Positions 19,374-41,600 of a stretch of 64,000 bases of DNA are shown in pieces. This DNA is from an uncultured Sulfitobacter sp. (GTDB lineage: Bacteria > Pseudomonadota > Alphaproteobacteria > Rhodobacterales > Rhodobacteraceae), in contig NZ_CANMQS010000012.1 of assembly GCF_947500075.1 (NCBI RefSeq), positions 1,233-65,232 of the forward strand, in the 5' to 3' direction. The notes under the pieces were generated by a model. That model worked only from the letters and a program-made list of their open reading frames with translations, did not search any database and was not told where the DNA came from. The translations under genes and the position numbers were made by a program. The number at the start of each line of letters is the position of its first letter. Positions within the stretch are counted from its first letter, which is position 1.

Positions 19374-20620
19374 ATTTCCAGCTTGATTGCCTTGCTCTTG
19401 GGGACAAGCGCATTGATCTGGCGCAGATGCTCCGGCAGGCAGACCGTGGCAAAGTCATAGTTCTTGACCACATGTTCGCGCGCATTTGGGCCGATATGCG
19501 CATAAGCATCCGGGTTGGCCAGAATGTCGATGATCTGATCAGCGAGCGCTTCTGGCTTGAAATAATCCACCAGCAGACCGTTTTTGCCGTGCTCGATCAC
19601 CTCCCGCGTGGGCTCCAGATCAGAGCCGATGACGGTAGCGCCCATCGCCATCGCCTCAAGCATGGACCACGACAGGACAAAGGGCTGCGACATGTAGAGA
19701 TGACATCGACCAACACGGATCAGGTCGCACAGCCCGTTGTAGGGAACACGGCCCAGAAAGTGCACGCGGTCCCAGTCAACCGTTTCGCCCAGCTCTTCCT
19801 CCATGATGCCGCGCAGGCCGCCCTGATGTTCGACCTCCTGACCATAGGAGCTTTCAGTACCGCCAACGACGATCACCCGCGCATTCGGGCGCTCCGACAA
19901 CAGCTTTGGCAATGCGCGCATGACCACGTGAAATCCGCGGGCGCGCTCAAGGTTGCGGGCGACATAGGTGATGATTTCATCATCACGGGTCAGCGGTTCG
20001 GGCAGGCGGCCCAAAGTGACGCTCACCTTGGGGTTTGGCTTCAGTTTGTCGGTTCGGATGCCGTCATGGCAAACGTACATTTTGCTATGGAAGCTTTTTG
20101 GAAACCGATCCTGCTGCCATTTGGTTGGACTATGCCCCAGATCGACGGAATCAATGTTCATGTAGGGCAGCGCATTGCGGGCGCGGGCGAAGTAGGCGGC
20201 TTGAGGAGAGACGCGCTCTTCGGGATCAAAGCCGACAATGCCGCCGGTTGCGCGATAGAAATACTCAAAAAAGCCAATGATCGGCACATCGGGCCAGAGG
20301 TCCTTGAAGAACGTCAACTCTCCCCAGCCGGTGTGGCCAATGATGATGTCGGGCAGGAAACCTTCGTCTTCTTCGATCTTCTTGGCCGCCTCAACCACGG
20401 AGAAGCCATGCGCGACACCATCCTCATACGTTCGGGAGAGTTTGAACGATTCCTCCGTTGAGGTGTGGATCGGCTTGTAAATCCGGATGTTGATGCCCTT
20501 GATCTTGACGTCGTCCCGTTGGGTCAGGAAGTAGATCGTATGCTTGTTCTGGGCGATCAGGAATCCAAGAAGTTCCCGATACTGGCCCGGAATATTTTGG
20601 TGAACGAAGAGTATTTTCAT
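19370..20620 (-). CDS. family 1/4 glycosyltransferase
   Basis: Start placed at ATG 20620 (MKILFVHQNIPGQY). The 20 upstream codons of the ORF-track entry have no support. C-terminal GT1 features: RVIVVGG, PFVLSWSMLEAMAMGATVIGS. Confidence 0.8.
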   Translation of the reverse strand: MKILFVHQNIPGQYRELLGFLIAQNKHTIYFLTQRDDVKIKGINIRIYKPIHTSTEESFKLSRTYEDGVAHGFSVVEAAKKIEEDEGFLPDIIIGHTGWGELTFFKDLWPDVPIIGFFEYFYRATGGIVGFDPEERVSPQAAYFARARNALPYMNIDSVDLGHSPTKWQQDRFPKSFHSKMYVCHDGIRTDKLKPNPKVSVTLGRLPEPLTRDDEIITYVARNLERARGFHVVMRALPKLLSERPNARVIVVGGTESSYGQEVEHQGGLRGIMEEELGETVDWDRVHFLGRVPYNGLCDLIRVGRCHLYMSQPFVLSWSMLEAMAMGATVIGSDLEPTREVIEHGKNGLLVDYFKPEALADQIIDILANPDAYAHIGPNAREHVVKNYDFATVCLPEHLRQINALVPKSKAIKLEI

Positions 20621-20707
20621 GACGCCATCCTTTGCGCGGGGCAGGCCAAAGTGCAACCCCGATCCAGCTGCGGATAGCACAGCAGAGATGGACGAAATAT
20701 GAAACGA

Positions 20708-21058
20708 TCAGGGCATTTCTGCGGAGGGGGCCGACTGCCAGAGGGCGACGAAGAGCCAAAGCGCTGCCGCCCAGTCGGCCAGCGTGATGGCCAGATACCA
20801 CCAATCCGGAACGGGACCGTTGCCATAAGACAAACCCAACGCAATTGAGCCGCCAATACCCATCACAAAAAAGCTGAGCCATGCAAGCCAACGCTTGCCC
20901 CGGTTCAGCCCTGCGGCAATCAGCAGATAGACCACGCCAAAGGGGATCAGCACCAGCGCCGCCGTGCTGAGACCGCCGACGGTGAAGGCGAAGAAATGCA
21001 GCGCGGCACTGATCAGCACAAAGACAGCGGCAAGACGGTAAGAAGCAGGAACAGTCAT
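20708..21058 (-). CDS. small integral membrane protein, unknown function
   Basis: 116 aa with four clear hydrophobic segments. Lies directly downstream of the oxidoreductase genes on the same strand. Confidence 0.5.
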   Translation of the reverse strand: MTVPASYRLAAVFVLISAALHFFAFTVGGLSTAALVLIPFGVVYLLIAAGLNRGKRWLAWLSFFVMGIGGSIALGLSYGNGPVPDWWYLAITLADWAAALWLFVALWQSAPSAEMP

Positions 21059-21069
21059 AGCGGGTTTCC

Positions 21070-26053: not shown

Positions 26054-26494
26054 CAGGTCGCGGGTGCCTTGGCATGGACAAGGTGACCGGTCTTCATCCA
26101 GACTTTTGCGCCGCCTTCTCCGGCAACGGATCGAAGCGATGCCCCATCGGGCAGTCGCAGCCAGGCGCCTTTGCTCAACGTCTCTCCACCTTCGGTCAGG
26201 CTCCCGCCGATGATGAGAAGTTGTCGGGGGATTGCGGACGTATGTGCCTTCCGGGAAATCCCCGTGTTCATCCTGAAAAACGCCGTCCAGAACGATGAAT
26301 TCTTCCCCACCTGTGTGCGTATGGGCGGAAAAATGGCTCCCCGGCGCGTAGCGCACGATGGAGGTTGCGCGGGCAACTTCGTCCCCGATCCTGTCGAGCA
26401 TCCGGCGGTCCACACCGGCCATGGGGGACGGGGTCCACGCCAGTTGTTCGGAGTGAACAACCACGCGGGCGTTGAAATCTGCGTTCAGTTCCAT
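26053..26494 (-). pseudogene. ChrR-like cupin gene, frame-disrupted
   Basis: The N-terminal half (MELNADF...[38 protein letters not shown]) is in one frame. The family-typical tail ([30 protein letters not shown], stop at 26053) is in the +1 frame. The frame change lies around 26200-26235. Confidence 0.55.
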
Positions 26495-26588
26495 GTGGCG
26501 GGTCCTTTTGTTTTGGGTGTCCGACGGGATGCTGTTGATCCGGGACGTCCGGGCGAGGTCGGAGCTATTTCGCAAATCGCGATCATGA

Positions 26589-26608
26589 TCTACCTACCAC
26601 TAGGTAGA
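26589..26608. promoter_or_regulatory. perfect inverted repeat TCTACCTA-CCAC-TAGGTAGA upstream of the cupin/oxidase/TetR operon; candidate operator
   Basis: Read directly from the sequence. It lies 95-115 nt upstream of the cupin start codon (26494, minus strand). Confidence 0.4.
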
Positions 26609-26728
26609 GATATGGAACAAGTATTATCTGACCTTGCGTCGAGGCCTTCACCGCACTGTGATGTGGCGGGAGCAAAGCCTGACAGAGCGGAGGCCTCAAA
26701 TGTCGCAAGGCTGAAAGGCCTTGCGGGA

Positions 26729-27145
26729 CTATTCGTCGGAACTGTCGTAAATGTCGAAGTCGATTGTCAGACCGCGCTCAGCCAGCCTTTGCAACGTCTC
26801 GTTCGACAGACTGATACCTTCATTGCCTTCTTCCATGAACAGGCCGCAGAAGACGTCTGCCCGGAAACGTGAGGTGAGGTCCTGCCAAATGCTCATGTCG
26901 TCGGTGAGCTGACCAAGTACCTCGGATATCTGAGCGTCAAGGTCGCCCGGTTCGCGCCGTTCTGCACTCAACCGCCAGCCGCCACTTCGGGCCGTTCGTT
27001 TGCTCCCTGTGGTCTTGCCGACAATCTCTTGTCCCTTCCTCTCAGAGTTGGTTGGCTGACGACCCAGGAGAAGGGTGAGTTCATCTGGGTCTAAGTCATC
27101 ACCAAAGAACCGAAGGGAAGCGGCTGAGCCGCTCAATACAGCCAT
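26729..27145 (-). CDS. DUF4279 domain protein
   Basis: 138 aa. The pattern SLRFFGDDLDPDELTLLLG..P......G........GGW.L....., ending in LTIDFDIY, matches my memory of DUF4279. Confidence 0.55.
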   Translation of the reverse strand: MAVLSGSAASLRFFGDDLDPDELTLLLGRQPTNSERKGQEIVGKTTGSKRTARSGGWRLSAERREPGDLDAQISEVLGQLTDDMSIWQDLTSRFRADVFCGLFMEEGNEGISLSNETLQRLAERGLTIDFDIYDSSDE

Positions 27146-27541: not shown

Positions 27542-28708
27542 ATGAAGATTGCAGTGGTTGGAATGGGCTATGTCGGCCTGTCGAATGCAGTTCTGCTGGC
27601 GCAGCACAACGATGTCACAGGTGTAGACCTGTCCGCAGAGCGGGTGCAGATGCTCAATGCCGGGCAAAGCCCTATCGTCGATCAGGAACTCAGCCGCTAT
27701 CTGAATGACGTGCCATTGATGCTTTCAGCCACCACCGATGGGGCCGATGCGATGCGGGAAGCGGATTACGTCGTTGTTGCCACGCCGACGGACTATGATC
27801 CGGAGACGAACTATTTCGATGTGTCCAGTGTCGAGAATGTGGTTGCTGAGGCTTTGGCACTGTCTGCGACCAGCACGGTCATCATCAAGTCCACCATCCC
27901 GGTTGGGTTCATCGACCGTATCCGTGCGGAGCATGATACAAAGCGTGTGATTTTCAGCCCTGAATTCCTGCGCGAAGGTCAGGCGTTGGCGGATAACCTG
28001 CACCCAAGTCGGATCGTTGTCGGGGATCGGACCGAAGCGGCACAGATCTTTGCGGATATGCTGGTTGAAGGCGCGGTTGCGACCGATATTCCGGTGCTGT
28101 TGACCGGCCCCTCAGAAGCGGAAGCGATCAAGCTTTTCGCCAACACCTACCTTGCCATGCGCGTGGCCTATTTCAACGAACTCGACAGTTATGCGCTGGC
28201 TGGTGGCATGGACACACGTGAGATCATACGGGGGATTTGCCTCGATCCCCGGATCGGGGATCATTACAATAACCCATCGTTTGGGTATGGGGGCTACTGC
28301 CTGCCGAAGGACACAAAGCAACTTCTGGCGAACTACTCAGAAGTGCCGCAAAACCTGATCCGCGCGATTGTTGATGCAAACCGGACGCGAAAGGGCTTTC
28401 TGGCAGATCAGATCATCGCCCATGGCCCGCAGAAAGTCGGCATCTACCGGTTGGTCATGAAAACCGGGTCGGACAACTTCCGCCATTCCTCCATTCAGGG
28501 GATTATGAAGCGGATCAAGGCCAAGGGCATTGATGTTGTGGTTTATGAGCCCAGCCTCAAAGAGGATCGGTTCTACAATTCGGAAGTGATCCGCGATCTG
28601 GACGTGTTCAAGTCATCCTGTGACCTGATTGTCGCCAATCGGCATACGGATGAACTGGCTGATGTTCGGGACAAGGTCTTTACCCGCGATCTCTTCGGCT
28701 CGGGCTAG
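27542..28708 (+). CDS. ugd: UDP-glucose 6-dehydrogenase
   Basis: 388 aa. [20 protein letters not shown] Rossmann motif and the catalytic-Cys region [19 protein letters not shown]. Confidence 0.95.
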
Positions 28709-28877: not shown

Positions 28878-29753
28878 ATGAGCGAACGAAGTAAGAGACT
28901 GGTACTGCACATCGGCTTTCACAAAACCGGAACGTCGGCCTTGCAGGAAGGGTTCTATGCCAATGCGGACAAGCTTGCCGCTGCGGGGCTGATCTATCCC
29001 AAACCGCTGTGCAAGTTTCAGTCGCATATCGAGCTTCCTGCGGCCCTTTTTCCAGATGAAGTGCCATGGGTAGAAGAGAAATATGACCTCGATGAAGTGT
29101 GTGGCCACTACGCGGACATGGTGGCCGATGCGCCGGAAGGGTCCACGCTGATCCTGTCGAGCGAGGAACTGTGCCGTATTGATCTGCGCGAAGAATTTCT
29201 GCGCGCTCTGCATGACCGTCTGGGCAATCTGCCGGATACCCGGACGCAGATCGTCGCGTATACACGCGATGCCGTGGCGTTCCTTGTTTCGCTCTATCAT
29301 CACGAAATCAGGGTGCGGGTCTATCACAAGCACTTCAGCGACTTTGTGAATGGCCATCATATCGCGCTTGAGAATGTGCGTTTTGACCGACGGCTTGAAG
29401 GCTGGCGGGCAACTTTCGGGGCGGAAAATGTTCTGGTGCAGGACTACGATCAGGTTGTTCGGCAGCGCGGTCCCACCGGGATTACCGAAGATTTCCTGAC
29501 CCTGATGGGGCACCCTGATCTCGACCTTGAGATTGAGGACAAATTCGTCAACACCGGTGTGCACCCCTGGCTGGTCTCAGCCTACAGCCAGCTTTACCTC
29601 GCCGGACTGCCCAAGCAAGACTACGACCCCATCCGCGATGAGATCATTCGCCTTGGTTTCAAGCTGCCGCGTGTCAATGCTGCTGAATACTACCTTGGTG
29701 AAGAAGGGGTTGCGGAACTGCGTGCGCGGATTGCCGATCACACGTCCATATAG
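28878..29753 (+). CDS. putative sulfotransferase-family protein
   Basis: 291 aa. The only clear motif is the N-terminal LVLHIGFHKTGTSALQ loop, which resembles the PKxGTT PAPS-binding loop. Confidence 0.45.
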   Translation: MSERSKRLVLHIGFHKTGTSALQEGFYANADKLAAAGLIYPKPLCKFQSHIELPAALFPDEVPWVEEKYDLDEVCGHYADMVADAPEGSTLILSSEELCRIDLREEFLRALHDRLGNLPDTRTQIVAYTRDAVAFLVSLYHHEIRVRVYHKHFSDFVNGHHIALENVRFDRRLEGWRATFGAENVLVQDYDQVVRQRGPTGITEDFLTLMGHPDLDLEIEDKFVNTGVHPWLVSAYSQLYLAGLPKQDYDPIRDEIIRLGFKLPRVNAAEYYLGEEGVAELRARIADHTSI

Positions 29754-29771: not shown

Positions 29772-30626
29772 CTACAGGCTGGAGAGGTCAGCTTCCCATG
29801 TGTCTGGCAGTCGGCCCAGCCGTTTCTTGACGTCCCTGTAAGCAGGCTCAAACGCCTCAACCAGCGTTTTGCGGTCGTCTGGATCGCATTCACGCATTTT
29901 CGCAGCTTTGCCCTTGGGAACCTTTGGCCCCAGCGCGGGGTCGAGATCCAGAAAGTCGCAAATGCGGTGATGATAGGTTTCCGCCTCTGGCCCATAGAGG
30001 TCTTCGAAGAAGCCCACATAGATGTCCTCGGCTGGAAACGCACTGTCGAGGGAGGACAACGTCCAGTCATATCGCGTGCGCTCGGCGAAGCCGGGTTTGT
30101 GCAACAGGTGCAGCGGACTTTCCACCTCCTGTGGCTTCAGCGTCAGCGGTGTCGCGTGGTGAGAGACCTGTGACAGAAAGCGGTCAACGGGGTTACGCAG
30201 GATAAACAGGATGCGCGGGCGGTCCAAGACCTGCGGGATGCGCGCGATGTCTTCGGCAGACATCGCGGCATAGGCCGGTGTGAACTCGCCGCAAATGGTT
30301 TTACCCGGCGGTGCGTCCATCAGCATTGCGCGGTATTTTGCGGGATCATGGCCAATGTCAAAACGATCAATGATGGAGCGGATTTCGTTCATCTCTGCGG
30401 TGATGTCTTTGTCCTCGGCCACGGCGGCTTCCAGAAACCGATGACGCAGCCGGATGTCGAGCGTTGCGCGCTTGCGCAGGCCACGGTCATTGCCCAGCAG
30501 ATCAAAGAAATGCACTTCCTTGATCGGAGGAATGTAGACATGCGGATGATGGGCCAGATACCCCGCCAAGCGGGTTGTCCCGGCCTTTTGTGCGCCGATG
30601 CCAAGGAATGTGCGAAGCGAAGTCAT
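29772..30626 (-). CDS. sulfotransferase
   Basis: 284 aa. 5-prime-PSB loop GIGAQKAGTTRLAGYL and 3-prime-PB motif ILRNPVDRFLSQ. Confidence 0.8.
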   Translation of the reverse strand: MTSLRTFLGIGAQKAGTTRLAGYLAHHPHVYIPPIKEVHFFDLLGNDRGLRKRATLDIRLRHRFLEAAVAEDKDITAEMNEIRSIIDRFDIGHDPAKYRAMLMDAPPGKTICGEFTPAYAAMSAEDIARIPQVLDRPRILFILRNPVDRFLSQVSHHATPLTLKPQEVESPLHLLHKPGFAERTRYDWTLSSLDSAFPAEDIYVGFFEDLYGPEAETYHHRICDFLDLDPALGPKVPKGKAAKMRECDPDDRKTLVEAFEPAYRDVKKRLGRLPDTWEADLSSL

Positions 30627-30675: not shown

Positions 30676-31488
30676 TCAACCCTGGTTGGGGAAACTGACT
30701 TCGCAGCGGTGACCCGCGGGCAGGGCAAGGTCCGGATTGGGCATCACCACCTGCACGCCGAAGGTTCCGGAGGCCGCATCAAAGATGCGGTCGATGACTT
30801 TTATGCGCCCCTGAAAGGTGCCCTCAAGAGGGGCGCGCGGCGTGATTTCCACTGTCATATCAAGGTCTAGCTTGGTGAACATCTCAACCGGTAAAAACGC
30901 TTCGACATGCAGTGGATCCAGCTGGGCGATGGTCACGATCTCTGCATCCTGGTCGGTATATTCACCAGTAAAAAGCGCGCGTGACTGCACAACGCCGTCA
31001 ATGGGGCTGGTAATGGTGCGCTGGCTCACAATCTCATTGGCACGTTTCAGCTCAAGCGTGGCGATGCGGTTGCGCATTTCCGCCATTGCAAGCTCTCCGC
31101 CCGCGACATCGACGGAAGCCTTGGCTTCCTCCAGCTCTTCTGCACTGGTGATATTGCGTTCCACCAGCGTGGCGACCCGCTCCATCCGGCTTTCGGCGAG
31201 CGCAAGGCGCGCGCGCTGCACCTCAACGTCCGATTGGCTCGCAGCGCGTTCTTTCATCAGATCCACGGTGGTTTGTTCGATACTGGTATCGAGGCGGGCA
31301 ATCACCTGCCCTTTCTCCACCAGATCGCCCCGCCCGACGTTTACTTCGCTCAGCAGACCGCCAACCGGGGCGGATATATTGACGGTCACCGCCGGTGTGA
31401 TCACGCAATCGAATGTCTGGGCGGTGGCAGAAAAAGCGCCAAACCCAAAGCAGGCAGCAAGAGCGGTTGTACGAAGCAAAGGCATCAT
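30676..31488 (-). CDS. HlyD-family periplasmic adaptor (membrane fusion protein) with signal peptide
   Basis: 270 aa. Signal-like MMPLLRTTALAACFGFGAFSATAQ, a lipoyl-like hairpin (VGGLLSEVNVGRGDLVEKGQVIARLD), a coiled coil and a beta-barrel. Its start overlaps the SecA-like stop (ATGATG/TGA). Confidence 0.85.
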   Translation of the reverse strand: MMPLLRTTALAACFGFGAFSATAQTFDCVITPAVTVNISAPVGGLLSEVNVGRGDLVEKGQVIARLDTSIEQTTVDLMKERAASQSDVEVQRARLALAESRMERVATLVERNITSAEELEEAKASVDVAGGELAMAEMRNRIATLELKRANEIVSQRTITSPIDGVVQSRALFTGEYTDQDAEIVTIAQLDPLHVEAFLPVEMFTKLDLDMTVEITPRAPLEGTFQGRIKVIDRIFDAASGTFGVQVVMPNPDLALPAGHRCEVSFPNQG

Positions 31489-33503
31489 TTTTCAAATCCC
31501 GAGAAGGCAAGGACGCGGTCCAATTGCCGGTCCATCTTGATAAGCTGTCGGCGTGCGCGGGCGTTCAATCCTTCCGCGCGTTTCTGACTGCGGCGGAAGG
31601 CGATCATGGCAAAGGGGCGGCCCAATATGCTGGGCAATTGTGCAAGCTGGCTGATCACCGGTGTCTTGATGGCTGTGACCAGAGGATCATCCAGCGATAG
31701 AATGGTTTCATAGGACCCCGGCTGACCCTGACGGGCCGTGCGCCCGATCAACTGTCGATCGATACGCGCGCTATCATGGCGTTCGGTCAGCATCACATGC
31801 AGACCACCCGCCTTGATTACTTCGTCTGGCACGTGGATATGGACGCCGCGCCCGGCCATATTGGTGGCCACGGTCACACGCCCCGGCTGCCCGGCATCCT
31901 TGATCACCTCCGCTTCCTCATCGGCGTTGACGGCATTCAGCACATCATGCTGAACACCGCGCTTGGTCAGATGGGCGCTGATCTTGTCCGATGCCCCAAC
32001 CGTGCGGGTCCCGATCAAAACAGCCTGCCCATTGCTGCGCAGGGTGTTCACTCTGTCCGCAATCAGATCAAGTTTTGCCTCTTCCTTTCGGGTAATCCGC
32101 GTGCCGAGGTGGCGCATCTTGGTGGGCAAGCGCGTGGGCAGCCGCAGTGTTGGAATGCGGTACACTGCGCAGATCTCACGCTGCACTTCCTGCACAGTGC
32201 CCGACATGCCGGACAGGCGCATGTAGCGGCGAAAGAACTTCTGGTAGGTCGTGCGCGCGATGGCCAGCTTTCGACCCGTCAGCTCAAGGTCCTCCTTGAA
32301 CTCCACCAGCTGGTGCAACCCATCGTTCCAGGACCGTTCCGGCATCAGACGCCCGGTGTATTCATCCACGATCACGATCTTGCCGTCCTGAATGACGTAC
32401 TGATCGCCTTCCTCAAAGAAGGTGCGCGCGGTGATGGCCTGACTTACAGCATGCTCGCGCTGGATCTTGTTGTGCCACAGCGGCTCAAGGGGCTTGCAGA
32501 ACTCCTCCAGCCGGTCCTTGCCAAAATCTGTCAGTTCAATGCGCTTCTCACTGGTGCGTTTCTTGTAGTGCAGATCCTCAAACATCTGATCCGCCAGATC
32601 ATATGTGGTGCGCGCCCATGCCTCCTCCGCAGCAACGTCTGTTTCCTGTGACAGGATCAGTGGCGTGCGGGCTTCGTCGATCAACACGCTGTCGGCTTCA
32701 TCCACCACAGCGAAATGCAGACCCCGCATCACGGGCGCGTCCGTATCATCCCCTTCCATCCGGCGCAGGCGCAGGCGGATGTCCCCTGTGCCCTGCCCGA
32801 TCTTCACCTGATCGCGCAGGTAGTCGAATGCGATCTCCTTGTTGGAGCAATAGACGATGTCGCTCAGATAGGTCTCACGGCGTTCATCGGGCGTATGTTC
32901 GTGGTCAATGCTCCCAACGCTGAGGCCGAGCCAGTCAAAAAGCGGCTTCATCTCCTCCGCGTCGCGTTGCGCAAGGTAGTCATTCACGGTCACAACATGG
33001 GTGGGCAAGCGGGCAAGTCCGGCCACGGCGGCGGTCAGGGCGGCGGCGAGGCTCTTACCCTCCCCCGTTGCCATTTCAACCAGCTTGCCGCTGAGCATCG
33101 TGAGTGCTGCGAACAATTGTTCATCATGGGGGCGCAGGCCCAAAGTGCGGCGGCTGACCTCGCGCACAAGAGACACGGCTTCGCCCAAGGCCGGGCCGCT
33201 GAGTTGCGTGGTGATCAGCCGCGCGCGATTGGCGTCGATGGCCTCCCGCAGGTCCGCGTCGCTCATGGCCTTGATGTTTTCTTCGCGTCTGCACGCGCGG
33301 CGCAGGATCTGTTTCAGCCGCGCGCGGCGCAGCATCCCGATACGTCCTGTAAGGCGCCCGAATATCTGGTGCATCCGATGGTCGATGTCGCTGAGCCGTG
33401 CATCATCGCGGGTCGGATAGGCCCGAAGGGTGAAAGGGCGCGCGAAGCCCGTGGCCGCGCGCGCCCGTCCAAACAAAGGATGGGAGGATGATGCCTCAGG
33501 CAT
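31485..33503 (-). CDS. truncated SecA-like DEAD-motor ATPase (NBD1, preprotein-crosslinking-like insert, NBD2; no wing or C-terminal domains)
   Basis: Start placed at ATG 33503 (MPEASSS), because the ORF-track extension to 33638 lies inside the SapC gene. SecA motifs: EMATGEGKS (33051-33074), VVTVNDYLAQRDAEEM, VVDEADSVLIDEARTPLILS, TVATNMAGRGVHI, GGLHVMLTERHDSARIDRQLIGRTARQG. Confidence 0.85.
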   Translation of the reverse strand: MPEASSSHPLFGRARAATGFARPFTLRAYPTRDDARLSDIDHRMHQIFGRLTGRIGMLRRARLKQILRRACRREENIKAMSDADLREAIDANRARLITTQLSGPALGEAVSLVREVSRRTLGLRPHDEQLFAALTMLSGKLVEMATGEGKSLAAALTAAVAGLARLPTHVVTVNDYLAQRDAEEMKPLFDWLGLSVGSIDHEHTPDERRETYLSDIVYCSNKEIAFDYLRDQVKIGQGTGDIRLRLRRMEGDDTDAPVMRGLHFAVVDEADSVLIDEARTPLILSQETDVAAEEAWARTTYDLADQMFEDLHYKKRTSEKRIELTDFGKDRLEEFCKPLEPLWHNKIQREHAVSQAITARTFFEEGDQYVIQDGKIVIVDEYTGRLMPERSWNDGLHQLVEFKEDLELTGRKLAIARTTYQKFFRRYMRLSGMSGTVQEVQREICAVYRIPTLRLPTRLPTKMRHLGTRITRKEEAKLDLIADRVNTLRSNGQAVLIGTRTVGASDKISAHLTKRGVQHDVLNAVNADEEAEVIKDAGQPGRVTVATNMAGRGVHIHVPDEVIKAGGLHVMLTERHDSARIDRQLIGRTARQGQPGSYETILSLDDPLVTAIKTPVISQLAQLPSILGRPFAMIAFRRSQKRAEGLNARARRQLIKMDRQLDRVLAFSGFEK

Positions 33504-34281
33504 CGCTCTCCGCTGGTGCCTTCTTGCCTTTCTTGGCAGCTGGCTTCTCAGCCTCGGCCGTTTCTTCGTTGGCGCGGTCCGCGACCTGACCGAAGTGGCG
33601 CAGGGAGGCCAGGTGCAGGAAGGTGCACTCCAGCTCATCGGTGGACATCATCGCTGCAAGCGTGTCCTTGTCGATCGCCTTGAGCTTCTCCCGGTCCACA
33701 GTCATGAACCCGGTCAGGGAACGCTGCTCGCCCCCTGGCATGGTGAACTGTGCCTGCATCGGGCGCAGCAGATCCAGTTCAACAAGGCGCTTGCAATAGG
33801 TCGTGCTGCGGTTGAAGCGCGCCTGATAGTCTTGCAGGAACGCGAGCACATTCTTGAGGTACTGGGTCTGGTTGCCATCCGCATCGAACAGACGTTCGCC
33901 ACGGTCATCCGTGTTCACGCCTTCAAAGCTTTCGTCGATGTGCAGCACCAGCTGGTCGCTGTCGGTCTGCTGGCTGAACACGAAGGGATAGCGGCGGATG
34001 AACGCAGGCACATAACGACCGGCCCAGGAGCCATCTGCGTTCACATATGCGTTCTTTTCGCCCGCAACGCCCAGGATCGCTGTCGGGATCACGTTCTCAC
34101 CCTCGCCCGCGAAGACGACGGGATATTCTGCGGCAGCATCTGCAAATTCAGACGCGGTCAGAGGCACGGAATTGACCTTGCTTGCAAAAGCAAAGCTGGT
34201 GCCTGCCTTGACGCAGGTCTTCGCGTGTTTCTTGGAACTGACAGGTGCAGCGTTATCGTAGAAAAGCAGTTGGGTCGCCAT
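33496..34281 (-). CDS. SapC-family protein
   Basis: 261 aa. N-terminal LLFYDNAAPVSSKKH...VPLTASEFADAAAEYPVVFAG and RYVPAFIRRYPF are typical of the family. A strong AGGAGG ribosome-binding site precedes it. Confidence 0.75.
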   Translation of the reverse strand: MATQLLFYDNAAPVSSKKHAKTCVKAGTSFAFASKVNSVPLTASEFADAAAEYPVVFAGEGENVIPTAILGVAGEKNAYVNADGSWAGRYVPAFIRRYPFVFSQQTDSDQLVLHIDESFEGVNTDDRGERLFDADGNQTQYLKNVLAFLQDYQARFNRSTTYCKRLVELDLLRPMQAQFTMPGGEQRSLTGFMTVDREKLKAIDKDTLAAMMSTDELECTFLHLASLRHFGQVADRANEETAEAEKPAAKKGKKAPAESDA

Positions 34282-34389
34282 AATATCCTCCTGTGCGCCC
34301 CCCGGGACGCAATCTTAAATAAATTCCGTACTCCTTTCGGGTATACGGTCGGCCAAATTCTGAGCATGTGTCGGGCCAAAAATCCACAT

Positions 34390-36537
34390 TTATATGTCAA
34401 ACTGCCTCAGAAAGACCTGTCTGGCCCGTCTATACACCCTTTTGGCGAGCGACATGGGTTCATGCGAGAAACGAACCATCGCGCGGTCGCCTATTGTTTC
34501 AAAAGAATGTGGCACACTTAACGCGAGGTCAAGGTGAAGGAATCGCCCAAAGGCCCGCTGACCGTTCGGATCAGAGGGGTCCAGAACAATGCTGCCGCCC
34601 CCTTCGGTTGCCAAGGCAAGGCTCGGCAGGACGGAGTCCAGCGCGGGTACTTCGCGCAGGATTTCCGCTTCAAGTGTCTCGTCGGGATTGGAGACAAAGC
34701 GAATGTCGATCCCGCGCGTTTCCCGGCGCACGATGTCGGTGTCATTTTCCGGTACAACAACCCGGATCACGGGTTCTGAAAAGGTGCTGACATAGCCCAG
34801 CAGCTGACCCTTGGTGACATATTGTCCTTCAAGATCAGTGGCATTGAAGAGTGCGACCCGCCCGTTTTGCTTTGCCGCAACGGTCAGCGCCCGCTGACGG
34901 TCGCGGGCAAGCTCCAGATCAGCCAGTGCGTGCTCCATTTCTTCTTCAGCGATCTTTGCACCTGCGGGATCATCCAGAGACAACGTAATCCGGCGCAACT
35001 GTATCTCTGCCAGCGTCGCTTCCAAAAGCCTGACCCGCGCGTCAAGCAGCGGGTCGTGAAGCTGGACCAGCGGCGTGTCCACGCTCACGTCCGCCCCCTG
35101 GTTCACGGCGACATGCTGCACAATCCCGTCTGTTTCTGCATGAACTGCACCGTCGCCGGGGACCCAGATCACCCCTTCGGACACGGTCGAGTAGGGCAGC
35201 GGCAGGAACACCAGCAGCCCCACAATGACCGAAAGGGTTACACCCAATACGCTCAGTGCCCTGCCCCGGCGTCGCCGCAGACGCGGGCTGGCGAGGAGAA
35301 ACCAGATCTGTTTGACCAGCGGCACCACGAACATCAGCACCACGGACCAGACAGCCAGCAGGATACCGAGCGAGAAGAACTTGGCCGACACCAGCAGGAT
35401 GATCGCAAAGGTGATGAACAGCCGATAGATGAATGCGGCGATGGAGTAGAAGAAGAACCAGACGGCCTCCCCTTTCGCGGTGGCGGGGTTCTTGGCGTCC
35501 TTGATGCCCAGAATGTAGCGCTGGATCAGGTAGCCGATGTATTCATTTGACCTGCGGCCGAGGTTCGGGATCTCAATGATGTCGCTCAGGACATAGTACC
35601 CGTCAAAGCGCAGCAACGGGTTGCCGTTGAACAGCAACGTCGACACGCCAGAGATCAGCATCACGTTGAAGGCAAAGGCGCTGACCAACCCTCCTTCGAC
35701 ATTCACCCAGACGATCATCGCAATCGCAGCCAGCGCAACTTCGACCAGAATGCCTGCACTCGCCACCAACGCCCTGAGCCATTTGTTGGGAAACGACAGG
35801 CTGTCGGAGGCGTCGACATAGGGCACGGGCATGAAGACAAGGAACATGATCCCGATTTCATGTACCTCCCCACCCCACCGGGTGATGGTATAGGCATGGC
35901 CAAGTTCATGTATTGCCTTGACCAGTGGATAGCAGATCAGCAGCAGGATGATGCTCTCGGTCGAAAGCACGCGGTCAATCAGGTTGTCGGTCAGGCCGTC
36001 CCAATTCAGCACGGCCAGCGTGGCTCCATAGCCAATCAGACACAGGTACAAAATGACCCCGACAATGGAGAAGAACGGCCGGACCAGCGGTTCGGTGATC
36101 TTCAAAAAGCCGTCGGGATCAATCAAGGGCACCCGCAAGGCGAGCGGGTTGAGGACGGATGTCACGCGCTTCTTGAACCGGCTGCTTTCGCCGCGGGTCA
36201 CCATTTCCTCGATATCCGGGATGCTGTCGCTTTGCAGGATGTCAGAGCTGTGCAACTGGCCCAGCAGGCGGATGATCTCATCCTGCGACAGGCTGTCGTC
36301 GGTCATCTGGGCAGAGACGATCTGCCAGATATCTTCCATCGAATGCTCGCCATCCAGCAGGGACACAACGAAATAGGCACCGGGTGTGAAACGATGGAAG
36401 CGACCGGATGTTCGGTCTTGCAGCACGTACCACAGCTTGCCCCGATAGTGGCTGCGGAAGATACGTGCCTGCGCGCGCAGCTTTGGTTTCAGCGGGGCAA
36501 CCCGGTACCAGGAGGCGGAGTAGAAACTGCCTGCCAT
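34390..36537 (-). CDS. fusion protein: PqqD/RRE-like N-domain, M50 (site-2 protease/YydH-like) polytopic metalloprotease, C-terminal HlyD-like adaptor module
   Basis: 715 aa. HELGH at 35896-35910, with several TM segments before and after it. The C-terminal 270 aa have a lipoyl-like hairpin, a coiled coil (LLEATLAEIQLRR...LADLELARDRQ) and a beta-barrel pattern. Confidence 0.8.
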   Translation of the reverse strand: MAGSFYSASWYRVAPLKPKLRAQARIFRSHYRGKLWYVLQDRTSGRFHRFTPGAYFVVSLLDGEHSMEDIWQIVSAQMTDDSLSQDEIIRLLGQLHSSDILQSDSIPDIEEMVTRGESSRFKKRVTSVLNPLALRVPLIDPDGFLKITEPLVRPFFSIVGVILYLCLIGYGATLAVLNWDGLTDNLIDRVLSTESIILLLICYPLVKAIHELGHAYTITRWGGEVHEIGIMFLVFMPVPYVDASDSLSFPNKWLRALVASAGILVEVALAAIAMIVWVNVEGGLVSAFAFNVMLISGVSTLLFNGNPLLRFDGYYVLSDIIEIPNLGRRSNEYIGYLIQRYILGIKDAKNPATAKGEAVWFFFYSIAAFIYRLFITFAIILLVSAKFFSLGILLAVWSVVLMFVVPLVKQIWFLLASPRLRRRRGRALSVLGVTLSVIVGLLVFLPLPYSTVSEGVIWVPGDGAVHAETDGIVQHVAVNQGADVSVDTPLVQLHDPLLDARVRLLEATLAEIQLRRITLSLDDPAGAKIAEEEMEHALADLELARDRQRALTVAAKQNGRVALFNATDLEGQYVTKGQLLGYVSTFSEPVIRVVVPENDTDIVRRETRGIDIRFVSNPDETLEAEILREVPALDSVLPSLALATEGGGSIVLDPSDPNGQRAFGRFLHLDLALSVPHSFETIGDRAMVRFSHEPMSLAKRVYRRARQVFLRQFDI

Positions 36538-36541
36538 GACC

Positions 36542-38533
36542 CTACGGGCTCCAGCGCCAGGCGACCATTTTCGCCCAATTCACCAACCGGCGCGTCCAGA
36601 TGGAGACAATCAGACGCTCATCAATGGCAACCCGTCCGATGCCTTCCATGTTTGGACGCACCCAATCGGGTGCACTGTCCAATTCGGCTTCGACCCGGAA
36701 ATAATTGCGCCCATCCCGTTGCATTGCCACCGGCGTGATGCCCTGCACGGTGAAGAACAGGGGGGTATCCGGGCTGGACGAGAGGCGCAACTGACCTTCG
36801 TGGCCCACGTCAAGCTGTGCAACGTCTGTCTCATCTACCTCCAACAAGACACGGAAACTGTCGAGCGGGGCAATCTTGAACAATTCCTGTCCGCGATTGA
36901 CGGAAGTGCCGACAAGCTGGCTCAGATCACCGGAGACCAGAATGCCCTCAAACGGAGCCTTGATCAGTGTCCGGCTCAATTGTTCGTCCAACAGTGCAAG
37001 CTGTGCATCCGCTTGATCAATCTGGCTGCGGATGATGTTGGCTTCCGCCCGCTCACCAGTCGCCAGGGCGCGGTCAAACTCAATCAGGCGTTGGTTGCGC
37101 GCAGTGGTCCATCGCAGACGCTCAAGCCGCAGGTCACGGTCGTTCAGCGTGGCCAGCACGTCCTCTGCCCCGACCTGCGCCCCAGCCCGCACGGTTTCGG
37201 TCTGGATGTAGCCATCGAAGGGCGCCACGATGGTTCGCTGCACCGACCCTTCGACCCGCGATGGTGCGGATACGGTGAAGGTCCCTTCGGTTGTCGCACC
37301 CAGATAGATGACTGCCGCCAAACCAATGGTAATCAGCTTGCGCCAGAAATAGCGCGGACCCAGAAGGGCAACGATCTGGCGTCCGATGGTGTCGAATATC
37401 TTGGTGATCAACCAGCGGTCGTTCTTGCGCTGCTCGTTCAGGATTGGGGCGATAAGGCTGGCGATCACATCGCAAAGCTCCACTGTTTCCTGATCGAAGG
37501 GTTCATCAGCCGGACGTTCCATGGTTAGGGCACCAAACATCTCCCCCTCTGCACGCAGGGGCACCGTCAGAATGCTGCCGGCCATGTGCGCGTGATAGAG
37601 GTCCTTGTGCATACGCGTGATGCGGTAGTCCCAGGCCTCCGGGGCGGGGTAGAGGATCACGTCTTCCTGATCCAGCGCTTCGTCCATCGCAAGACCGATA
37701 TCGCGCACCAGATTCATCCGACTGCCAAAGCCGGAGGTATGGCTGAGTGCTGCCACGCGGATGCGTTTACGTTTCAGGAACCCAAGGGCCACCTGCTCAC
37801 ACCCAAGGCGGCTGGCCAGTTCGGTCACCAGAGCAGAACAAGCATCCGAAAAGCGCCGTTGTTCAAGCGCGACAGCGACGAAATCCAAGGCCTTGAGTGT
37901 CCGTGCGTGTAGGGCTGAATCCTCGGCTCCCTGCTCCCGGCGTAGCAGGGCTTCAAGCCAGCCTGTGCCCCAGCGCAATTGGTGCAGGGCGTCAGCAGCC
38001 GCCATGCTGTTGGACCCCAGTGTGACCGCCACAGTGCCGTAGATCTTGTCCTCCAGCATCAAGGGCAGTGCCAGTGTGCCGCCGCTGCCGCCTTGCGCGG
38101 CACCGACAACGACGCTCTGCTTTTTGCTCAGCGCTTCATTGGCGGCCTGCATCAAGGCGTTGGAGACGTCATCGGTTCCGGGCCACGTGGCAACCGGTGT
38201 GAAGGGACCGACTTCCGGCTCTCCCAAGACGACCACGGCCGCGGTTGCCCCGGTGATATTGCGGCATTGCAGACCCAGCCAGGCGCGTACAAAACCTTCA
38301 CCAGAACTGGCGTTCAGGAACTGCGCCCAAAGGGTATGCTCCAAAACAGCCACCCGTGGTTCAGAAGCCCGTTCCGTCTTGGCTGCCTTGGTGCTGACGA
38401 TCCCTTTCTGCGGGGTGATCCGACTTTTGCGGGTGTCGCCATCCGCCTCACCATCCGGGTTCTGCCCGCCCTTTCGGACAGACATGAACGCGCCGGTTTC
38501 GGGCATATTTCGCGGTGTGTCCTGATCGGACAT
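36542..38533 (-). CDS. fusion protein: two cytoplasmic GAF-like domains, one TM, periplasmic HlyD-family adaptor
   Basis: 663 aa. The GAF-like segment ends ...SILTVPLRAEGEMFGALTMERPADEPFDQETVELCDVIASLIAPIL. TM is LITIGLAAVIYLGATT. HlyD part is APFDGYIQTETVRAGAQVGAEDVLATLND followed by a coiled coil. A 4-nt gap separates it from the next gene. Confidence 0.7.
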   Translation of the reverse strand: MSDQDTPRNMPETGAFMSVRKGGQNPDGEADGDTRKSRITPQKGIVSTKAAKTERASEPRVAVLEHTLWAQFLNASSGEGFVRAWLGLQCRNITGATAAVVVLGEPEVGPFTPVATWPGTDDVSNALMQAANEALSKKQSVVVGAAQGGSGGTLALPLMLEDKIYGTVAVTLGSNSMAAADALHQLRWGTGWLEALLRREQGAEDSALHARTLKALDFVAVALEQRRFSDACSALVTELASRLGCEQVALGFLKRKRIRVAALSHTSGFGSRMNLVRDIGLAMDEALDQEDVILYPAPEAWDYRITRMHKDLYHAHMAGSILTVPLRAEGEMFGALTMERPADEPFDQETVELCDVIASLIAPILNEQRKNDRWLITKIFDTIGRQIVALLGPRYFWRKLITIGLAAVIYLGATTEGTFTVSAPSRVEGSVQRTIVAPFDGYIQTETVRAGAQVGAEDVLATLNDRDLRLERLRWTTARNQRLIEFDRALATGERAEANIIRSQIDQADAQLALLDEQLSRTLIKAPFEGILVSGDLSQLVGTSVNRGQELFKIAPLDSFRVLLEVDETDVAQLDVGHEGQLRLSSSPDTPLFFTVQGITPVAMQRDGRNYFRVEAELDSAPDWVRPNMEGIGRVAIDERLIVSIWTRRLVNWAKMVAWRWSP

Positions 38534-38627: not shown

Positions 38628-38667
38628 GCTCAAAGAAGAACCGGCCTCTGTTGTATTAGAGGCCGGT
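38628..38667 (-). terminator. rho-independent terminator after the giant gene
   Basis: On the minus strand: ACCGGCCTCT-AATACAAC-AGAGGCCGGT (10-bp perfect stem, 38640-38667) followed by TCTTCTTTG. It begins about 20 nt after the TAG stop at 38687-38689. Confidence 0.6.
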
Positions 38668-38686: not shown

Positions 38687-41600
38687 CTATTTCAGCAATG
38701 AGGTCAGTTTGGACACAAATCCATTCGCCCCAGCGAGCCAGTTCACTGCACCAGAGCTGCCAGCGCCTTCAGATTCGCTGACTTCAATGGGGGCGCCAAC
38801 GCTGCCATCGTCATCCGCGTCACCGATTGCGGACAGGCTCCGTGCCGTGTCGGGATCAACGAACTGGCCGGTCACATCGTCAAAGACGAGGGTGGCAGGC
38901 GCATCAAAGCGTGTGCCTGTGTCCAGCGTTTCGTTCATCACATGTGACGGATCGAAGCCGATCAGGTGATCGTAGCCCAGTGTATGGCCCAACTCATGCG
39001 TCAGGGTAGACAGGATATCCATCCGGCCTTCCGCATCCGAGCCGTCCACCGCACGCAGGGTGCCTGCATTGTCAGCGACAAAGCCTGCCTCCTCAGCCGG
39101 ACGGACATCGACGAACCAGCCGTGATCAGCCGCGTTGACATCCACCAAAATGGTGTTGCCCTGCGCTGCTGCCAGTGCCTGACCCTGAAGATTTGCCACA
39201 CGGATTTCGACGTCACGCAAGGTTGCGATCTGTTCGTCGTCCAGATGACCGCTTTCTTCCCACAGTTCCTTTGCCGCTTCGAGGACTTCGCGGGCCTCAT
39301 CAAGGGTCACCCGTGCATCAGACACACCATCCGCATGGGTGGAGGCCGTCAGCATCACCATTTCCTCTGGGCATTTCACCGGTGCCGGGATGGTTGCAAT
39401 GAAGGGGTTCAGCTTGCCACGGATGGCGTTGTTGCTGTTCTCCCTCACAACCAGATCGGGCCGGTCTGCGGCAGCGATAAATTCTGCCAGCATGGCCTGA
39501 ACCAGTGTGTCACGTTCGGACTGCGGCAGGTTGTTGCCCGCGATGAAGTCGTTGCCGATGCCGCGGACGAAGTCTTCGCCGTTGCCACCCACAAGCGTAT
39601 CGCGACCCGCGCCACCTTCGACACGGTCCGACCCGTTTTCACCAAAGAGCAGATCACCCGGCTGCGAAGCTGAGCCCGGCTCACCGAAGAAGCCGCCACC
39701 CAGAACACGGTCGCTGCCGCCCTCGCCGCTGGCAAGGTCGATACCGTTGGACAGGTACAGGTTGTCGTTGCCGCCGCCACCAAGCGCCACGTGACGCCAC
39801 AGGGTGTCTTCGTCGGCACCTGGGATCACGAAGTCACGCGACCCGTTGGTGCTGGCGATCAGACCCATCCAGATGATGTCGTGACCTCCGCCGCCGTGGG
39901 CAAAGTCGTGTCCGCCGCCGGTGGCAATCTCATCGTTGCCGCGCAGACCCATGATCGCGTTGTTGCGGTCATTGGCCCAGATGTTGTCTGCAAACTCCGA
40001 CCCGACAACATCTTCGATATTGTCACGGGAGAACAACCGCACAGATCCGTCGGCATCGCCAAGGATGACGTCATCGCTATAGGCCTGAACCCCGATGTCC
40101 TGCAATTCAAGGGTGATACCCGTGTGGAAATTGCTGAAGTCGAGCACATCGCCGGTGTCGTTGGTCAGGCCATCGGGGATCTGTGCCCCGCCGCCATCAC
40201 CATCAGGATCAATGGAAGCCGGGAATGTCCCGCTTTCGATGATCATGTCGGAGCCAAGGCGGCTGCCGGCAAAGACGTAGTTGTCGTCGCCGATCCCACC
40301 ATAGGAGATGTCATCACCGCGACCGCCTTCGATGACGTCGCCACCGCCGATTGTCACATCCGTCAGCTTCAGACCCGTGACTGAGAAAGGATCGAAGTTT
40401 GGATGATCCTTGTTATCCGCCGGGAAGGTCTTGTTCAGGTCAGGTGTGCCGAGCTGGACAACTTCACCAGCGAACAGGCGAACCTGCGCATGATCACCGA
40501 CAGTGATATCATCCCCATCTTCACCATGCAGGAAGTCAGCACCATCACCACCCACGATCACGTCACCGTCCAATCCACCAAAGATCTGGTCGGAGGAGTT
40601 CACAAGGCCGAGCGCTTCGGAGTTCATCTCGTAGGTCACGCGGTCCAGCACACGGATCTGACCCTGGTCACCCAGCACGCGATCACTGTCGAAGTCACCT
40701 TGTGGAACGATGTTGTCCTTGTCGCTACCGCTCACGATTTGCAGCGCTGCAAGAGCAGGCATGTTGCGCCCGTCCTGTCCCGCCAGACGCAGTGAGAAGC
40801 CATCGCCAACGATGTCTTTGAAGACAAAGACGTTCGCCCGCAGGAACGGATCGCTGCCATCGCTGGTGACGAGCTCCCGATTAAACGCGAGGCCCCGTGG
40901 GTTCAGGATGGAATGCACGACACCATTTGCGTCAATCAACTCGATATCCACATCGAACCGCTCCGGGCGGAACTGCATGTCGATATAGAGGTAGACGTCA
41001 TAGGCATTTCCTGCACCGACCAACCCGTCAACACCGGTCAGGTCTGCACCTTGTACGCGGGCGCTGTTTTCGCGCATGTAGCCGTTGTACAGGCGACCCA
41101 GTTGGGTATCAGGGTTGATGGCAGAACTGTCACGGATCTGACCCACATGTGGGAAGCTCGAATCCAGTGCCCGACCAATCAGGAGGCTCACACCTTCCGA
41201 AGAGGTGAAACGTTCTGCTTCCTGACCTTTGGGACCGTTTTCGTCATCCAGACCATCCGCAGGATCAAAGAAGTCACCCAAGGTCCGGTTGTCGAGGTTC
41301 AGCCAGTTATCCGAAGCGACATAGCCTGTCGTTCCTTCAACAAAAGCCTCATCCACGGTCGATGACAGGTTGAACCCAAGCGACGTGATGTCAGGCGTTT
41401 CACCGTGCAGCGCGTCATCCACGCCATTGTGCACGCCGGTGTCACCGACATGGATGCAATCGTCGCCCTGACCGCCGATCACCATATCCTCACCGTTGCC
41501 GGTGATGATGATGTCGTTGAAGCTGAAGACTTCGGACGTGGTCTGGGTGCGCATATCCCGCAGCTCGCCCAGGTCGCCACCTTCTGGTGTGACGGTCCGT

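Follow-up and report, generated by a model that had tools for sequence, protein, structure and literature searches.

To our knowledge, the export of proteins of about 1 MDa across two membranes is understood only for the adhesins of type I secretion systems (T1SS), which are driven by ABC transporters, and the locus described here raises the question of what could carry out such a task where no transporter of this kind is encoded. It lies in a stretch of 64,000 nucleotides (nt; hereafter the window) of contig NZ_CANMQS010000012.1 from an uncultured Sulfitobacter sp., in which five genes on the minus strand encode three HlyD-type membrane-fusion modules, an M50-type metalloprotease, a short SecA-like ATPase and a SapC-family protein, directly downstream of the 3' part of a giant gene. 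We regard it as likely that this cassette is dedicated export machinery for the adjacent giant protein. The observations that bear on the question are the conservation of the cassette as a unit, the recurrence of very large genes beside it, the LEPR-XLL motif near the N-terminus of several of these giants, and the homology of the cassette protease to peptidases that remove leaders from other substrates. The features concerned, all on the minus strand, are as follows.

38687-64000, minus strand: 3' 25.3 kb of the giant gene, covering 8,437 codons or more up to the window edge; presumed cargo
38966-38998, minus strand: metzincin-type zinc motif HELGHTLGYDH of the giant protein, read from the sequence
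38640-38667, minus strand: terminator-like hairpin ACCGGCCTCT-loop-AGAGGCCGGT, followed by T-rich sequence, in the spacer that separates the giant stop codon from the GAF-HlyD gene
36542-38533, minus strand: GAF-HlyD, 663 amino acids (aa); first cassette gene in nearly all of the 80 loci compared below
34390-36537, minus strand: fusion of an RRE (PqqD-like) region, an M50 metalloprotease and an HlyD domain (M50-HlyD), 715 aa
34282-34389, minus strand: the sole sizeable intergenic gap of the cassette, with an AGGAGG ribosome-binding site at its end, read directly from the sequence
33496-34281, minus strand: SapC-family protein, 261 aa; Pfam SapC 4.9e-71
31485-33503, minus strand: short SecA-like ATPase, 672 aa, identified with Pfam and NCBIfam
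30676-31488, minus strand: small HlyD, a periplasmic membrane-fusion protein with an N-terminal signal-like segment, 270 aa; last gene in most loci

Conservation and partners of the cassette

The calls of open reading frames (ORFs) give a 4-nt gap between the GAF-HlyD and M50-HlyD genes (36538-36541), an 8-nt overlap of the SapC and SecA-like genes, an ATGA overlap of the SecA-like and small HlyD genes at 31485-31488, and a gap of 108 nt (34282-34389) that ends in cacAGGAGGatattATG, with AGGAGG 6 nt ahead of the SapC ATG; an earlier note on this DNA, made from its letters, had described five packed genes with this gap, these overlaps and this ribosome-binding site, and every spacing is borne out. 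The SecA-like ORF spans 31485-33638 (minus strand), and the ATG at 33503 yields the 672-aa product that is also the database gene call. The domains proposed in that note were recovered in searches with hidden Markov models (SecA_DEAD, SecA_PP_bind, HlyD, M50, GAF and SapC), the PqqD match being weak. The hairpin at 38640-38667 has a stem of 10-11 bp, lies directly past the giant stop codon and 107 nt upstream of the GAF-HlyD start, and suggests, as far as its sequence goes, either separate transcription of cargo and machinery or attenuated read-through.

A distribution scan with one genome per species, which gives a lower bound, returned M50-HlyD loci from at least 589 species, which include Alpha-, Beta- and Gammaproteobacteria, Desulfobacterota, Nitrospira (Nitrospirota), an acidobacterium and one metagenome-assembled genome (MAG) of Flavobacteriales; full-length relatives of the protein number in the thousands. 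When ORFs were called in the best 80 of these at least 589 loci and searched with the five window proteins, the order GAF-HlyD, M50-HlyD, SapC where present, SecA-like (~655-700 aa) and small HlyD was recovered in nearly all of them, across phyla, and the same order is found in separate contigs of Mesorhizobium and Oceanicola granulosus. The earlier note had let its proposal stand or fall with conserved synteny and with undamaged catalytic motifs, and both are found. A non-functional remnant, in which the short SecA and the weak M50 domain are decaying paralogues, might be suspected from a SecA-like protein ~230 aa shorter than canonical SecA and from a marginal Pfam score of the M50 domain (Peptidase_M50, 28.0 bits against a cutoff of 27.2). 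However, the short length is stable, almost all of the top 150 representatives of divergent clusters at 50% identity measuring 640-695 aa, which points to a stable family and not to a fragment; conservation among 72 SecA-like members is 95% or higher for Walker A (GEGK150S), Walker B (D268-E-A-D), GRG and the arginine-rich motif; HExxH and NxxPxxxxD are kept in 82 of 82 M50-HlyD relatives; and the gene order is conserved across phyla. Such a remnant is effectively refuted by this conservation. Judged from gene order and motifs, the cassette is a conserved functional unit and no chance assembly.

The accessory genes vary with lineage. In 19 of 84 loci (18 distinct), every one alphaproteobacterial, the SapC gene separates the genes for M50-HlyD and the SecA-like protein, whereas outside the closest alphaproteobacterial relatives it is found in another place or not at all; by this distribution, SapC is an accessory to the alphaproteobacterial form of the cassette. 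The window protein matches SapC (PF07277) with 239.3 bits against a cutoff of 28.9, is cytoplasmic by hydropathy and is modelled by AlphaFold2 (AF2) with a pLDDT of 87.5; a PDB sequence match was not found, and Foldseek against PDB gave nothing better than E 0.3. SapC homologues are sometimes annotated 'multidrug transporter' or 'peptidase' (RefSeq plasmids; L085, L089, L090). In 29 loci, including L016, L022, L025, L028 (7692-8042), L030, L036, L038 and L043, a DUF3467 gene (~105-125 aa) is positioned directly upstream of GAF-HlyD, between it and the giant, and the RefSeq annotation of the Methylosinus, Pontibrevibacter and Thalassospira cassettes also includes it; there is none in the window, which has SapC instead. 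DUF3467 returned no PDB profile match. Its reading as a SecB-like chaperone was dropped as unsupported, hhalign against an approximate E. coli SecB sequence giving a probability of 0.3%.

Regarding the partners that HlyD adaptors would be expected to have, the Pfam scans, which covered most non-overlapping ORFs of at least 150 aa in window positions 1-30,700, found no T1SS ABC transporter, RND pump, MFS pump, SecY or TolC/OEP in the 64-kb window, in agreement with the earlier note; the sole ABC genes found encode an ABC-2 membrane protein (7208-8020, minus strand) and an ABC ATPase (9560-10216, plus strand), both of the polysaccharide-export type. In the same way, clustering of the neighbouring ORFs of the 80 loci revealed no conserved ABC transporter or pump within 10 kb on either side of the cassette. 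The situation of TolC is different. None is encoded in the window, as had been noted, but some relatives carry tolC inside the cassette (Methylosinus and Thalassospira, in both at the cassette end; E. coli; Azospirillum), so that TolC is not truly absent from the system, and the TolC partner in this genome is probably encoded elsewhere.

A module of this kind has been reported before. Kamneva, Poudel and Ward (PLoS One 2015, PMC4452313) described 'secondary SecA_DEAD' proteins whose genes stand with those of three HlyD-domain proteins, one weakly similar to M50, another containing GAF and the third a small HlyD/biotin-lipoyl protein, with OEP/TolC occasionally nearby and an ABC transporter never; they proposed SecA_DEAD as the ATPase, M50 as the membrane component (with the idea of a pore) and GAF as the sensor, and ascribed the spread across phyla to horizontal gene transfer. 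[quoted passage not shown] The four core genes of the 2015 module are those found here, equally without an ABC gene, and the window version differs by SapC between M50 and SecA-like; the window cassette is, in short, a SapC-containing variant of that module, and the core hypothesis was published with it. The earlier note, which treated the combination as uncharacterised, had missed that the combination and the same roles were already in this paper. PMC4452313 does not mention cargo, giant neighbours, RTX, LEPR-XLL, PqqD/RRE, SapC or DUF3467; an extensive review of tripartite systems from 2021 makes no mention of the cassette in the part available; and a literature search on LEPR-XLL, DUF3467, DUF4347 and the M50, HlyD and SecA combination gave nothing mechanistic beyond the 2015 paper. 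The link to LEPR-XLL giants, the RRE/leader-peptidase homology and the TolC-containing and SecA-less relatives, all set out below, were not found in the literature searched, and together they make the cassette directly testable.

The giant neighbour and the LEPR-XLL motif

The giant ORF is open from 38687 to the window edge over 8,437 codons, which agrees with the RTX neighbour of more than 8,400 aa seen earlier, and the gene is called at 11,300 aa in MAG contig CANLEK010000017.1 (GCA_947489635.1), where, as calculated from the coordinates, it reaches the contig end. The encoded protein is rich in Ala, Gly, Val, Asp and Thr, and its sole Pfam match is to RTX repeats in the C-terminal part, which occupy the last ~3,000 aa and are followed by a non-repeat tail of ~300 aa. 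It is collinear with a LEPR-XLL protein of a Pseudosulfitobacter plasmid (36-58% identity over roughly 4,000 aligned residues, with an additional 31% identity over the C-terminal ~240 aa): in Pseudosulfitobacter sp. DSM 107133, a 12,918-aa 'LEPR-XLL domain-containing protein' is followed by the same cassette, SapC included. A search of the plasmid collection for near-identical DNA gave no match, and with the C-terminal 700 aa of the giant as query, a protein search yielded nothing but fragments and RTX proteins no longer than ~1,200 aa. The proximity of a large gene is a recurrent trait, since in 36 of the 47 loci with 4 kb or more of flank on each side a same-strand ORF of at least 1,000 aa abuts the cassette; in most cases this ORF is upstream and extends beyond 2,000 aa before the locus edge interrupts it.

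An N-terminal LEPRxLLSAD motif is present in nine flanking ORFs of the 80 genome loci, at residues 29-104; eight of these ORFs are longer than 1,200 aa, the ninth being interrupted by the contig end after 141 aa, and three of the N-termini score 23.9-29 bits with NF012209 (LEPR-XLL), against a cutoff of 17. The motif is missing from the two other flanking ORFs that reach 1,000 aa and have their start within the locus, one of them dubious and of high GC (L040) and the other of 1,070 aa (L069); all clearly large flanking ORFs of these loci with a readable N-terminus have it. The RefSeq name 'LEPR-XLL domain-containing protein' is borne by the giants of Pseudosulfitobacter, Pontibrevibacter and Thalassospira, and in a blind check the Methylosinus giant, named 'LamG-like', proved to carry TLEPRVLLNAD (start ...IIFDTLEPRVLLNAD). 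The leaders are net basic and lack a hydrophobic core, and their terminal pattern is h-x-[LMF]-E-x-[LM]-EPR-x-L-L-S-A-D, as exemplified by the Pseudosulfitobacter leader peptide (MAFPF...KMEALEPRFLLSADP). No LEPR motif occurs in the six reading frames of the window, where the 5' end of the giant gene lies beyond the edge, and for this reason the motif was missed in the earlier note.

At the other end of the protein, HELGHTLGYDH is found ~100 aa from the C-terminus, with 'AADHGWFVD' nearby and a VFDDVTGQFV motif after it, and NCBIfam metzincin-type families match weakly at aa 390-426 of the last 500; this C-terminal metzincin-type element could be a self-processing or matrix-protease module. 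Among 38 giant C-termini (that of the window and those of 37 upstream giants), HExxHxxGxx[H/D] is present within the last 210 aa in 18, and FDExxGxFV in 14. A universal C-terminal secretion signal was rejected on these counts, and the restriction of the C-terminal features to about half of the giants leaves the N-terminal motif as the better candidate for a system-specific signal.

The layout of RTX repeats followed by a non-repeat C-terminal tail is nevertheless the usual one for a classical T1SS substrate with a C-terminal signal, and it favours an alternative in which the giant is exported C-terminus first by HlyB/HlyD/TolC encoded elsewhere, the cassette being a quality-control, anchoring or release module that might, for instance, cut off an N-terminal retention segment in a Lap-like manner when GAF senses the appropriate conditions. 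The 1,116-aa RTX protein encoded in the window without a local T1SS indicates that a conventional T1SS is probably present elsewhere in the genome, the hairpin between giant and cassette suggests separate regulation, and the GAF domains suggest a signal input. Several observations stand against this proposal: the domains of the LapG cysteine protease and the LapD c-di-GMP receptor occur in no scanned ORF, so that the Lap adhesin-release analogy drawn earlier has to be given up; in the predicted topology, the M50 site and the RRE would face the cytoplasm or inner leaflet and meet the N-terminus before export; three membrane-fusion paralogues, with TolC in some cassettes, are hard to fit to pure processing; no T1SS ABC gene is conserved near the cassette; and no T1SS genes (ABC/MFP/TolC, where MFP is membrane-fusion protein) are found at the 5' far end of the giant gene in the syntenic Pseudosulfitobacter plasmid, the place where the earlier note had located a possible canonical system. 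We consider export by a T1SS encoded elsewhere unlikely. The cassette does share with classical T1SS (HlyB-HlyD-TolC; LapBCE, SiiCDF) the HlyD alpha-hairpin adaptors, the TolC of some cassettes and the adjacent giant RTX cargo; it differs in its lack of an ABC transporter, in its SecA-type ATPase and in three adaptor paralogues instead of one, and its candidate signal, LEPR-XLL, is N-terminal, whereas that of T1SS is C-terminal.

Candidate machine parts and a proposed mechanism

If the cassette itself exports the giant, as we favour, M50-HlyD is the protein in which leader recognition and cleavage may be sought. The AF2 model (pLDDT 82) places at its N-terminus a cytoplasmic beta3-alpha3 unit at aa ~26-97, in RRE order (E26-31, E34-40, E47-50, H52-59, H67-77, H85-97) and with a pLDDT of 66-85 in this part; the Pfam PqqD match there is weak (E 0.004, 17.9 bits against a cutoff of 23.4), and many homologues have a precomputed PF05402 match or the RefSeq name 'PqqD family'. 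On the strength of the model, the protein appears to begin with an RRE-like fold. According to AF2 and hydropathy, this unit is followed by ~7 transmembrane (TM) helices and a periplasmic MacA/AcrA-like adaptor, also matched by HlyD_D23. The TM region carries H210-E211-xx-H214, as HELGH, and N304..P307..D312, which are invariant in alignments; the position of HExxH in a TM helix, the downstream NxxPxxxxD ligand and the Pfam score above threshold are all in agreement with membership of M50. The two-helix alpha-hairpin of the adaptor is at aa 496-549, and the best Foldseek matches of the adaptor are MacA, MexA and AcrA (E ~1e-12), from pumps in which a hairpin of this type makes the contact with TolC; with the whole model the adaptor domain dominates the Foldseek result, which offers no independent fold evidence for the M50 part. 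The predicted topology puts both the M50 active site and the RRE domain on the side of the cytoplasm or inner leaflet, and the PqqD-like domain is a candidate reader of the LEPR-XLL motif.

Over aa 29-405, M50-HlyD matches NCBIfam daptide_HExxH (NF041824) with E 1e-46, at 159.9 bits against a cutoff of 300, and has a weaker similarity, also below cutoff, to YydH/LiaK (NF058609); by sequence comparison, this part is homologous to leader peptidases of ribosomally synthesized and post-translationally modified peptides (RiPPs), but it is not a member of the daptide_HExxH family. With these peptidases it shares a PqqD-like element and an HExxH membrane domain, and it departs from them in the fusion to a periplasmic HlyD domain and in the lack of precursor or tailoring genes in the window. 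That its nearest named relatives belong to RiPP pathways, together with HlyD adaptors of the sort typical of bacteriocin exporters and the conserved small DUF3467 gene (~110 aa) upstream in 29 loci, could be taken to mean that the cassette is a small-peptide exporter of the RiPP/bacteriocin type and the giant gene a frequent but functionally separate neighbour. This seems very unlikely, as both NCBIfam scores are under their cutoffs, neither the window nor most loci contain a conserved short precursor or modification enzyme, the window has no DUF3467, and the LEPR motif sits on the giants themselves. For a dedicated exporter of the giant, the peptidase-containing ABC transporters (PCATs; C39, double-glycine leader) are more instructive: there too the exporter, coupled to an MFP, contains a protease for the recognition and removal of an N-terminal leader, although this protease is a cytoplasmic C39 cysteine enzyme and not an intramembrane M50 zinc enzyme with an RRE, the motor is ABC where that of the cassette is non-ABC, and the substrate is a peptide and not a cargo of thousands of residues. 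The nearest working analogy is thus a PCAT with its MFP, in which M50/RRE replaces C39 and a SecA-type motor replaces the ABC domains.

Related operons without SecA support the association of the motif with the protease. An operon with a ~26%-identical M50-HlyD is present in E. coli and Citrobacter IncF plasmids and in Azospirillum, in the order giant, TolC, small HlyD, HlyD (without GAF) and M50-HlyD; examples are L092, on the E. coli plasmid NZ_CP081687.1 (44829-64580), and L093, on an Azospirillum brasilense plasmid. The giants of these operons start with MTTIKNRRLRPRAHRFALESRQLFDGAA and MALEPRFMFDAA, then DUF4347, those of L092 and L093 being Ig-like or DUF4347 proteins with N-terminal ALESRQLFDGAA or MALEPRFMFDAA, and the MTTIKNRRLRPRAHRFALESRQLFDGAA/MALEPRFMFDAA starts are variants of the LEPR-XLL motif. 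Since such variants are found on the giants of SecA-less operons, the motif tracks M50-HlyD and not the SecA-like protein; GAF and the SecA-like gene occur jointly in the clade that contains the window cassette. Among 5,426 complete E. coli genomes, 24 carry the SecA-less variant, for the most part on plasmids, and it offers a tractable model without an obvious ATPase.

The SecA-like protein is identified by SecA_DEAD (5e-90), SecA_PP_bind (9e-26) and P-loop_SecA (4e-43), and falls short of the canonical SecA models (TIGR00963/NF009538; 518-524 bits against cutoffs of 800-814) and of the SecA2 models of NCBIfam (353-460 bits against cutoffs of 725-1100). Its alignment is confined to residues 37-603 of B. 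subtilis SecA, with ~40% identity in the conserved blocks; NBD1, the preprotein cross-linking domain (PPXD), NBD2 and the start of the scaffold helix are retained, while the helical wing domain (HWD), the two-helix finger and the C-terminal tail are missing and the N-terminal region cannot be aligned to canonical SecA, the protein having a ~80-aa N-terminal extension and a ~75-aa C-terminal tail of its own. Its gene is named 'prepilin peptidase' in Pseudosulfitobacter and Methylosinus by PGAP, likewise 'DEAD/DEAH box helicase' in Pontibrevibacter, and 'preprotein translocase subunit SecA' in the RefSeq plasmid annotation of Alisedimentitalea. The E. coli SecA N68 fragment, reportedly described by Karamanou et al. 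in 1999, comprises the DEAD motor and the PPXD, and the SecA-like protein ends near the end of N68 (B. subtilis residue ~603-615), that is, without the C-domain; in SecA, this domain restrains the ATPase. Unlike N68, the cassette protein represents a naturally evolved, conserved family with its own N-terminal extension and C-terminal tail.

The retention of NBD1, PPXD and NBD2, together with a small HlyD that is purely periplasmic, also allows a two-step route, in which the SecA-like protein targets the giant to SecYEG, M50 acts as leader peptidase and HlyD/TolC take up the product from the periplasm as MacAB-TolC would. The missing parts of the protein, which contribute to contacts with SecY, lipid and SecB in canonical SecA, argue against it, as do leaders that lack the hydrophobic core typical of a Sec signal peptide, and an unfolded protein of more than 8,000 aa would hardly be expected to pass through the periplasm; on balance, the two-step route is quite improbable. 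A related comparison is that with accessory Sec (SecA2/SecY2/Asp1-3), in which a second SecA-type ATPase is likewise encoded beside a very large repetitive surface protein. Accessory Sec is, however, Gram-positive, while the cassette belongs to a Gram-negative envelope with MFP/TolC components; neither SecY2 nor Asp proteins are encoded with it, and the SecA-like protein lacks the HWD, the two-helix finger and the C-terminal domain. Of the export machine outlined in the earlier note, then, the functional unit remains, most plausibly as an envelope-spanning export device tied to the giant, and the SecA2 and Lap analogies do not.

The two other HlyD proteins complete the picture. GAF-HlyD matches GAF, GAF_2, GAF_3 (two stretches), HlyD_3 and HlyD_D23 of Pfam and, by hydropathy, consists of a ~390-aa cytoplasmic GAF region, one predicted TM segment at ~aa 399-417 and a periplasmic HlyD domain; the small HlyD, periplasmic as a whole, is matched by RND_mfp (142 bits against a cutoff of 94.9), HlyD_D23 and HlyD_3.

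With these parts, a leader-dependent, TolC-coupled secretion of the giant by the five-gene apparatus can be modelled, T1SS-like but independent of an ABC transporter, and from the sequences in hand we hold its chances to be evenly balanced. The cytoplasmic RRE domain of M50-HlyD would bind the LEPR-XLL leader of the nascent or unfolded giant, and the intramembrane HExxH site would cleave it at the inner leaflet, as C39-peptidase ABC exporters do with double-glycine leaders. The SecA-like motor would clamp the chain through its cross-linking domain and feed it, driven by ATP and from N to C, into an inner-membrane assembly made of the 7-TM M50 domains and the GAF-HlyD anchor, a direction in which the export of proteins of 8,000-13,000 aa could begin before translation ends. 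The three HlyD paralogues would form a periplasmic tube to a TolC-family duct, encoded elsewhere in this genome; the cytoplasmic GAF domains might gate the machine or dock the motor; and SapC here, like DUF3467 in other lineages, would be a cytoplasmic accessory, possibly a chaperone.

The wider interpretation, that of a distinct diderm pathway, is put forward only tentatively. Surface proteins of 4,000-13,000 aa would bear a cleavable, non-hydrophobic LEPR-XLL leader that is read by an RRE and removed by M50, and would be driven N-terminus first, possibly co-translationally, by a minimal SecA-type motor through a triple-MFP/TolC conduit free of ABC and SecYEG; the SecA-less relatives, those of E. 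coli plasmids included, would be a second branch that is powered otherwise. Should the cassette export LEPR-XLL giants, it would represent a mechanistically new secretion route, account for both the orphan NCBI family LEPR-XLL and the orphan bioinformatic observation of 2015, and assign a role both to a natural 'motor-only' SecA and to an RRE domain that does not belong to RiPP biosynthesis; the cargo link makes a directly testable hypothesis out of what was a vague secretion-related locus.

A number of points weigh against dedicated export of the giant in this form. The two-helix finger, which in canonical SecA contacts SecY and the translocating chain, is missing from the SecA-like protein; we know of no M50 protease that acts as a protein conductor; and the C-terminal layout of the giant is, as discussed above, that expected of a T1SS substrate. 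The LEPR-XLL status of the window giant would follow from homology, its N-terminus lying outside window and contig, and at the annotated start of the Alisedimentitalea giant the motif was not found. Eleven of the 47 loci have no giant neighbour, and the giant gene and the five cassette genes, with the hairpin between them, may be separate transcripts. The SecA-less cassettes of E. coli plasmids and Azospirillum imply that the wider class can do without a SecA-type motor. Expression during exponential phase was limited to the GAF gene in M. extorquens AM1 (PMC4452313), and no experimental follow-up of the 2015 module was found in the literature, in which respect the description of the combination as uncharacterised is still correct.

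Other genes in the window

The remaining ORFs of the window, as classified by Pfam, include rhamnose biosynthesis genes, glycosyltransferases, three sulfotransferases, the ABC-2 polysaccharide exporter pair and the 1,116-aa RTX protein. A surface-glycan locus adjoins the cassette (1205-4677, 4723-7218, 7208-10216, 14562-20680 and 27542-28708), with four dTDP-rhamnose biosynthesis genes, several glycosyltransferases, the ABC-2 exporter pair and a UDP-glucose dehydrogenase; one of the glycosyltransferases is a 1,217-aa WsaF-like protein, WsaF being an S-layer glycan rhamnosyltransferase. The locus may serve the glycosylation of the secreted giant or RTX proteins, or capsule synthesis. The RTX protein of 1,116 aa (11075-14425, minus strand) has 14 HemolysinCabind stretches, is without the LEPR motif and ends in ...SDSLTII, which can be read as a classical T1SS-type C-terminus.

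The three sulfotransferase-family genes are located at 10217-11059 (minus strand), 28878-29753 (plus strand) and 29772-30626 (minus strand). The last of them is on the same strand as the small HlyD gene and follows it after a 49-nt gap, so that the two may share a transcript, and it has no conserved position beside the cassette in other species. ORFs without a Pfam match are found at 8027-9550 (plus strand), 20424-21215 (minus strand) and 26171-26872 (plus strand), some of which may not be real genes; the first, of 507 aa, is situated between the ABC-2 permease and ATPase genes.

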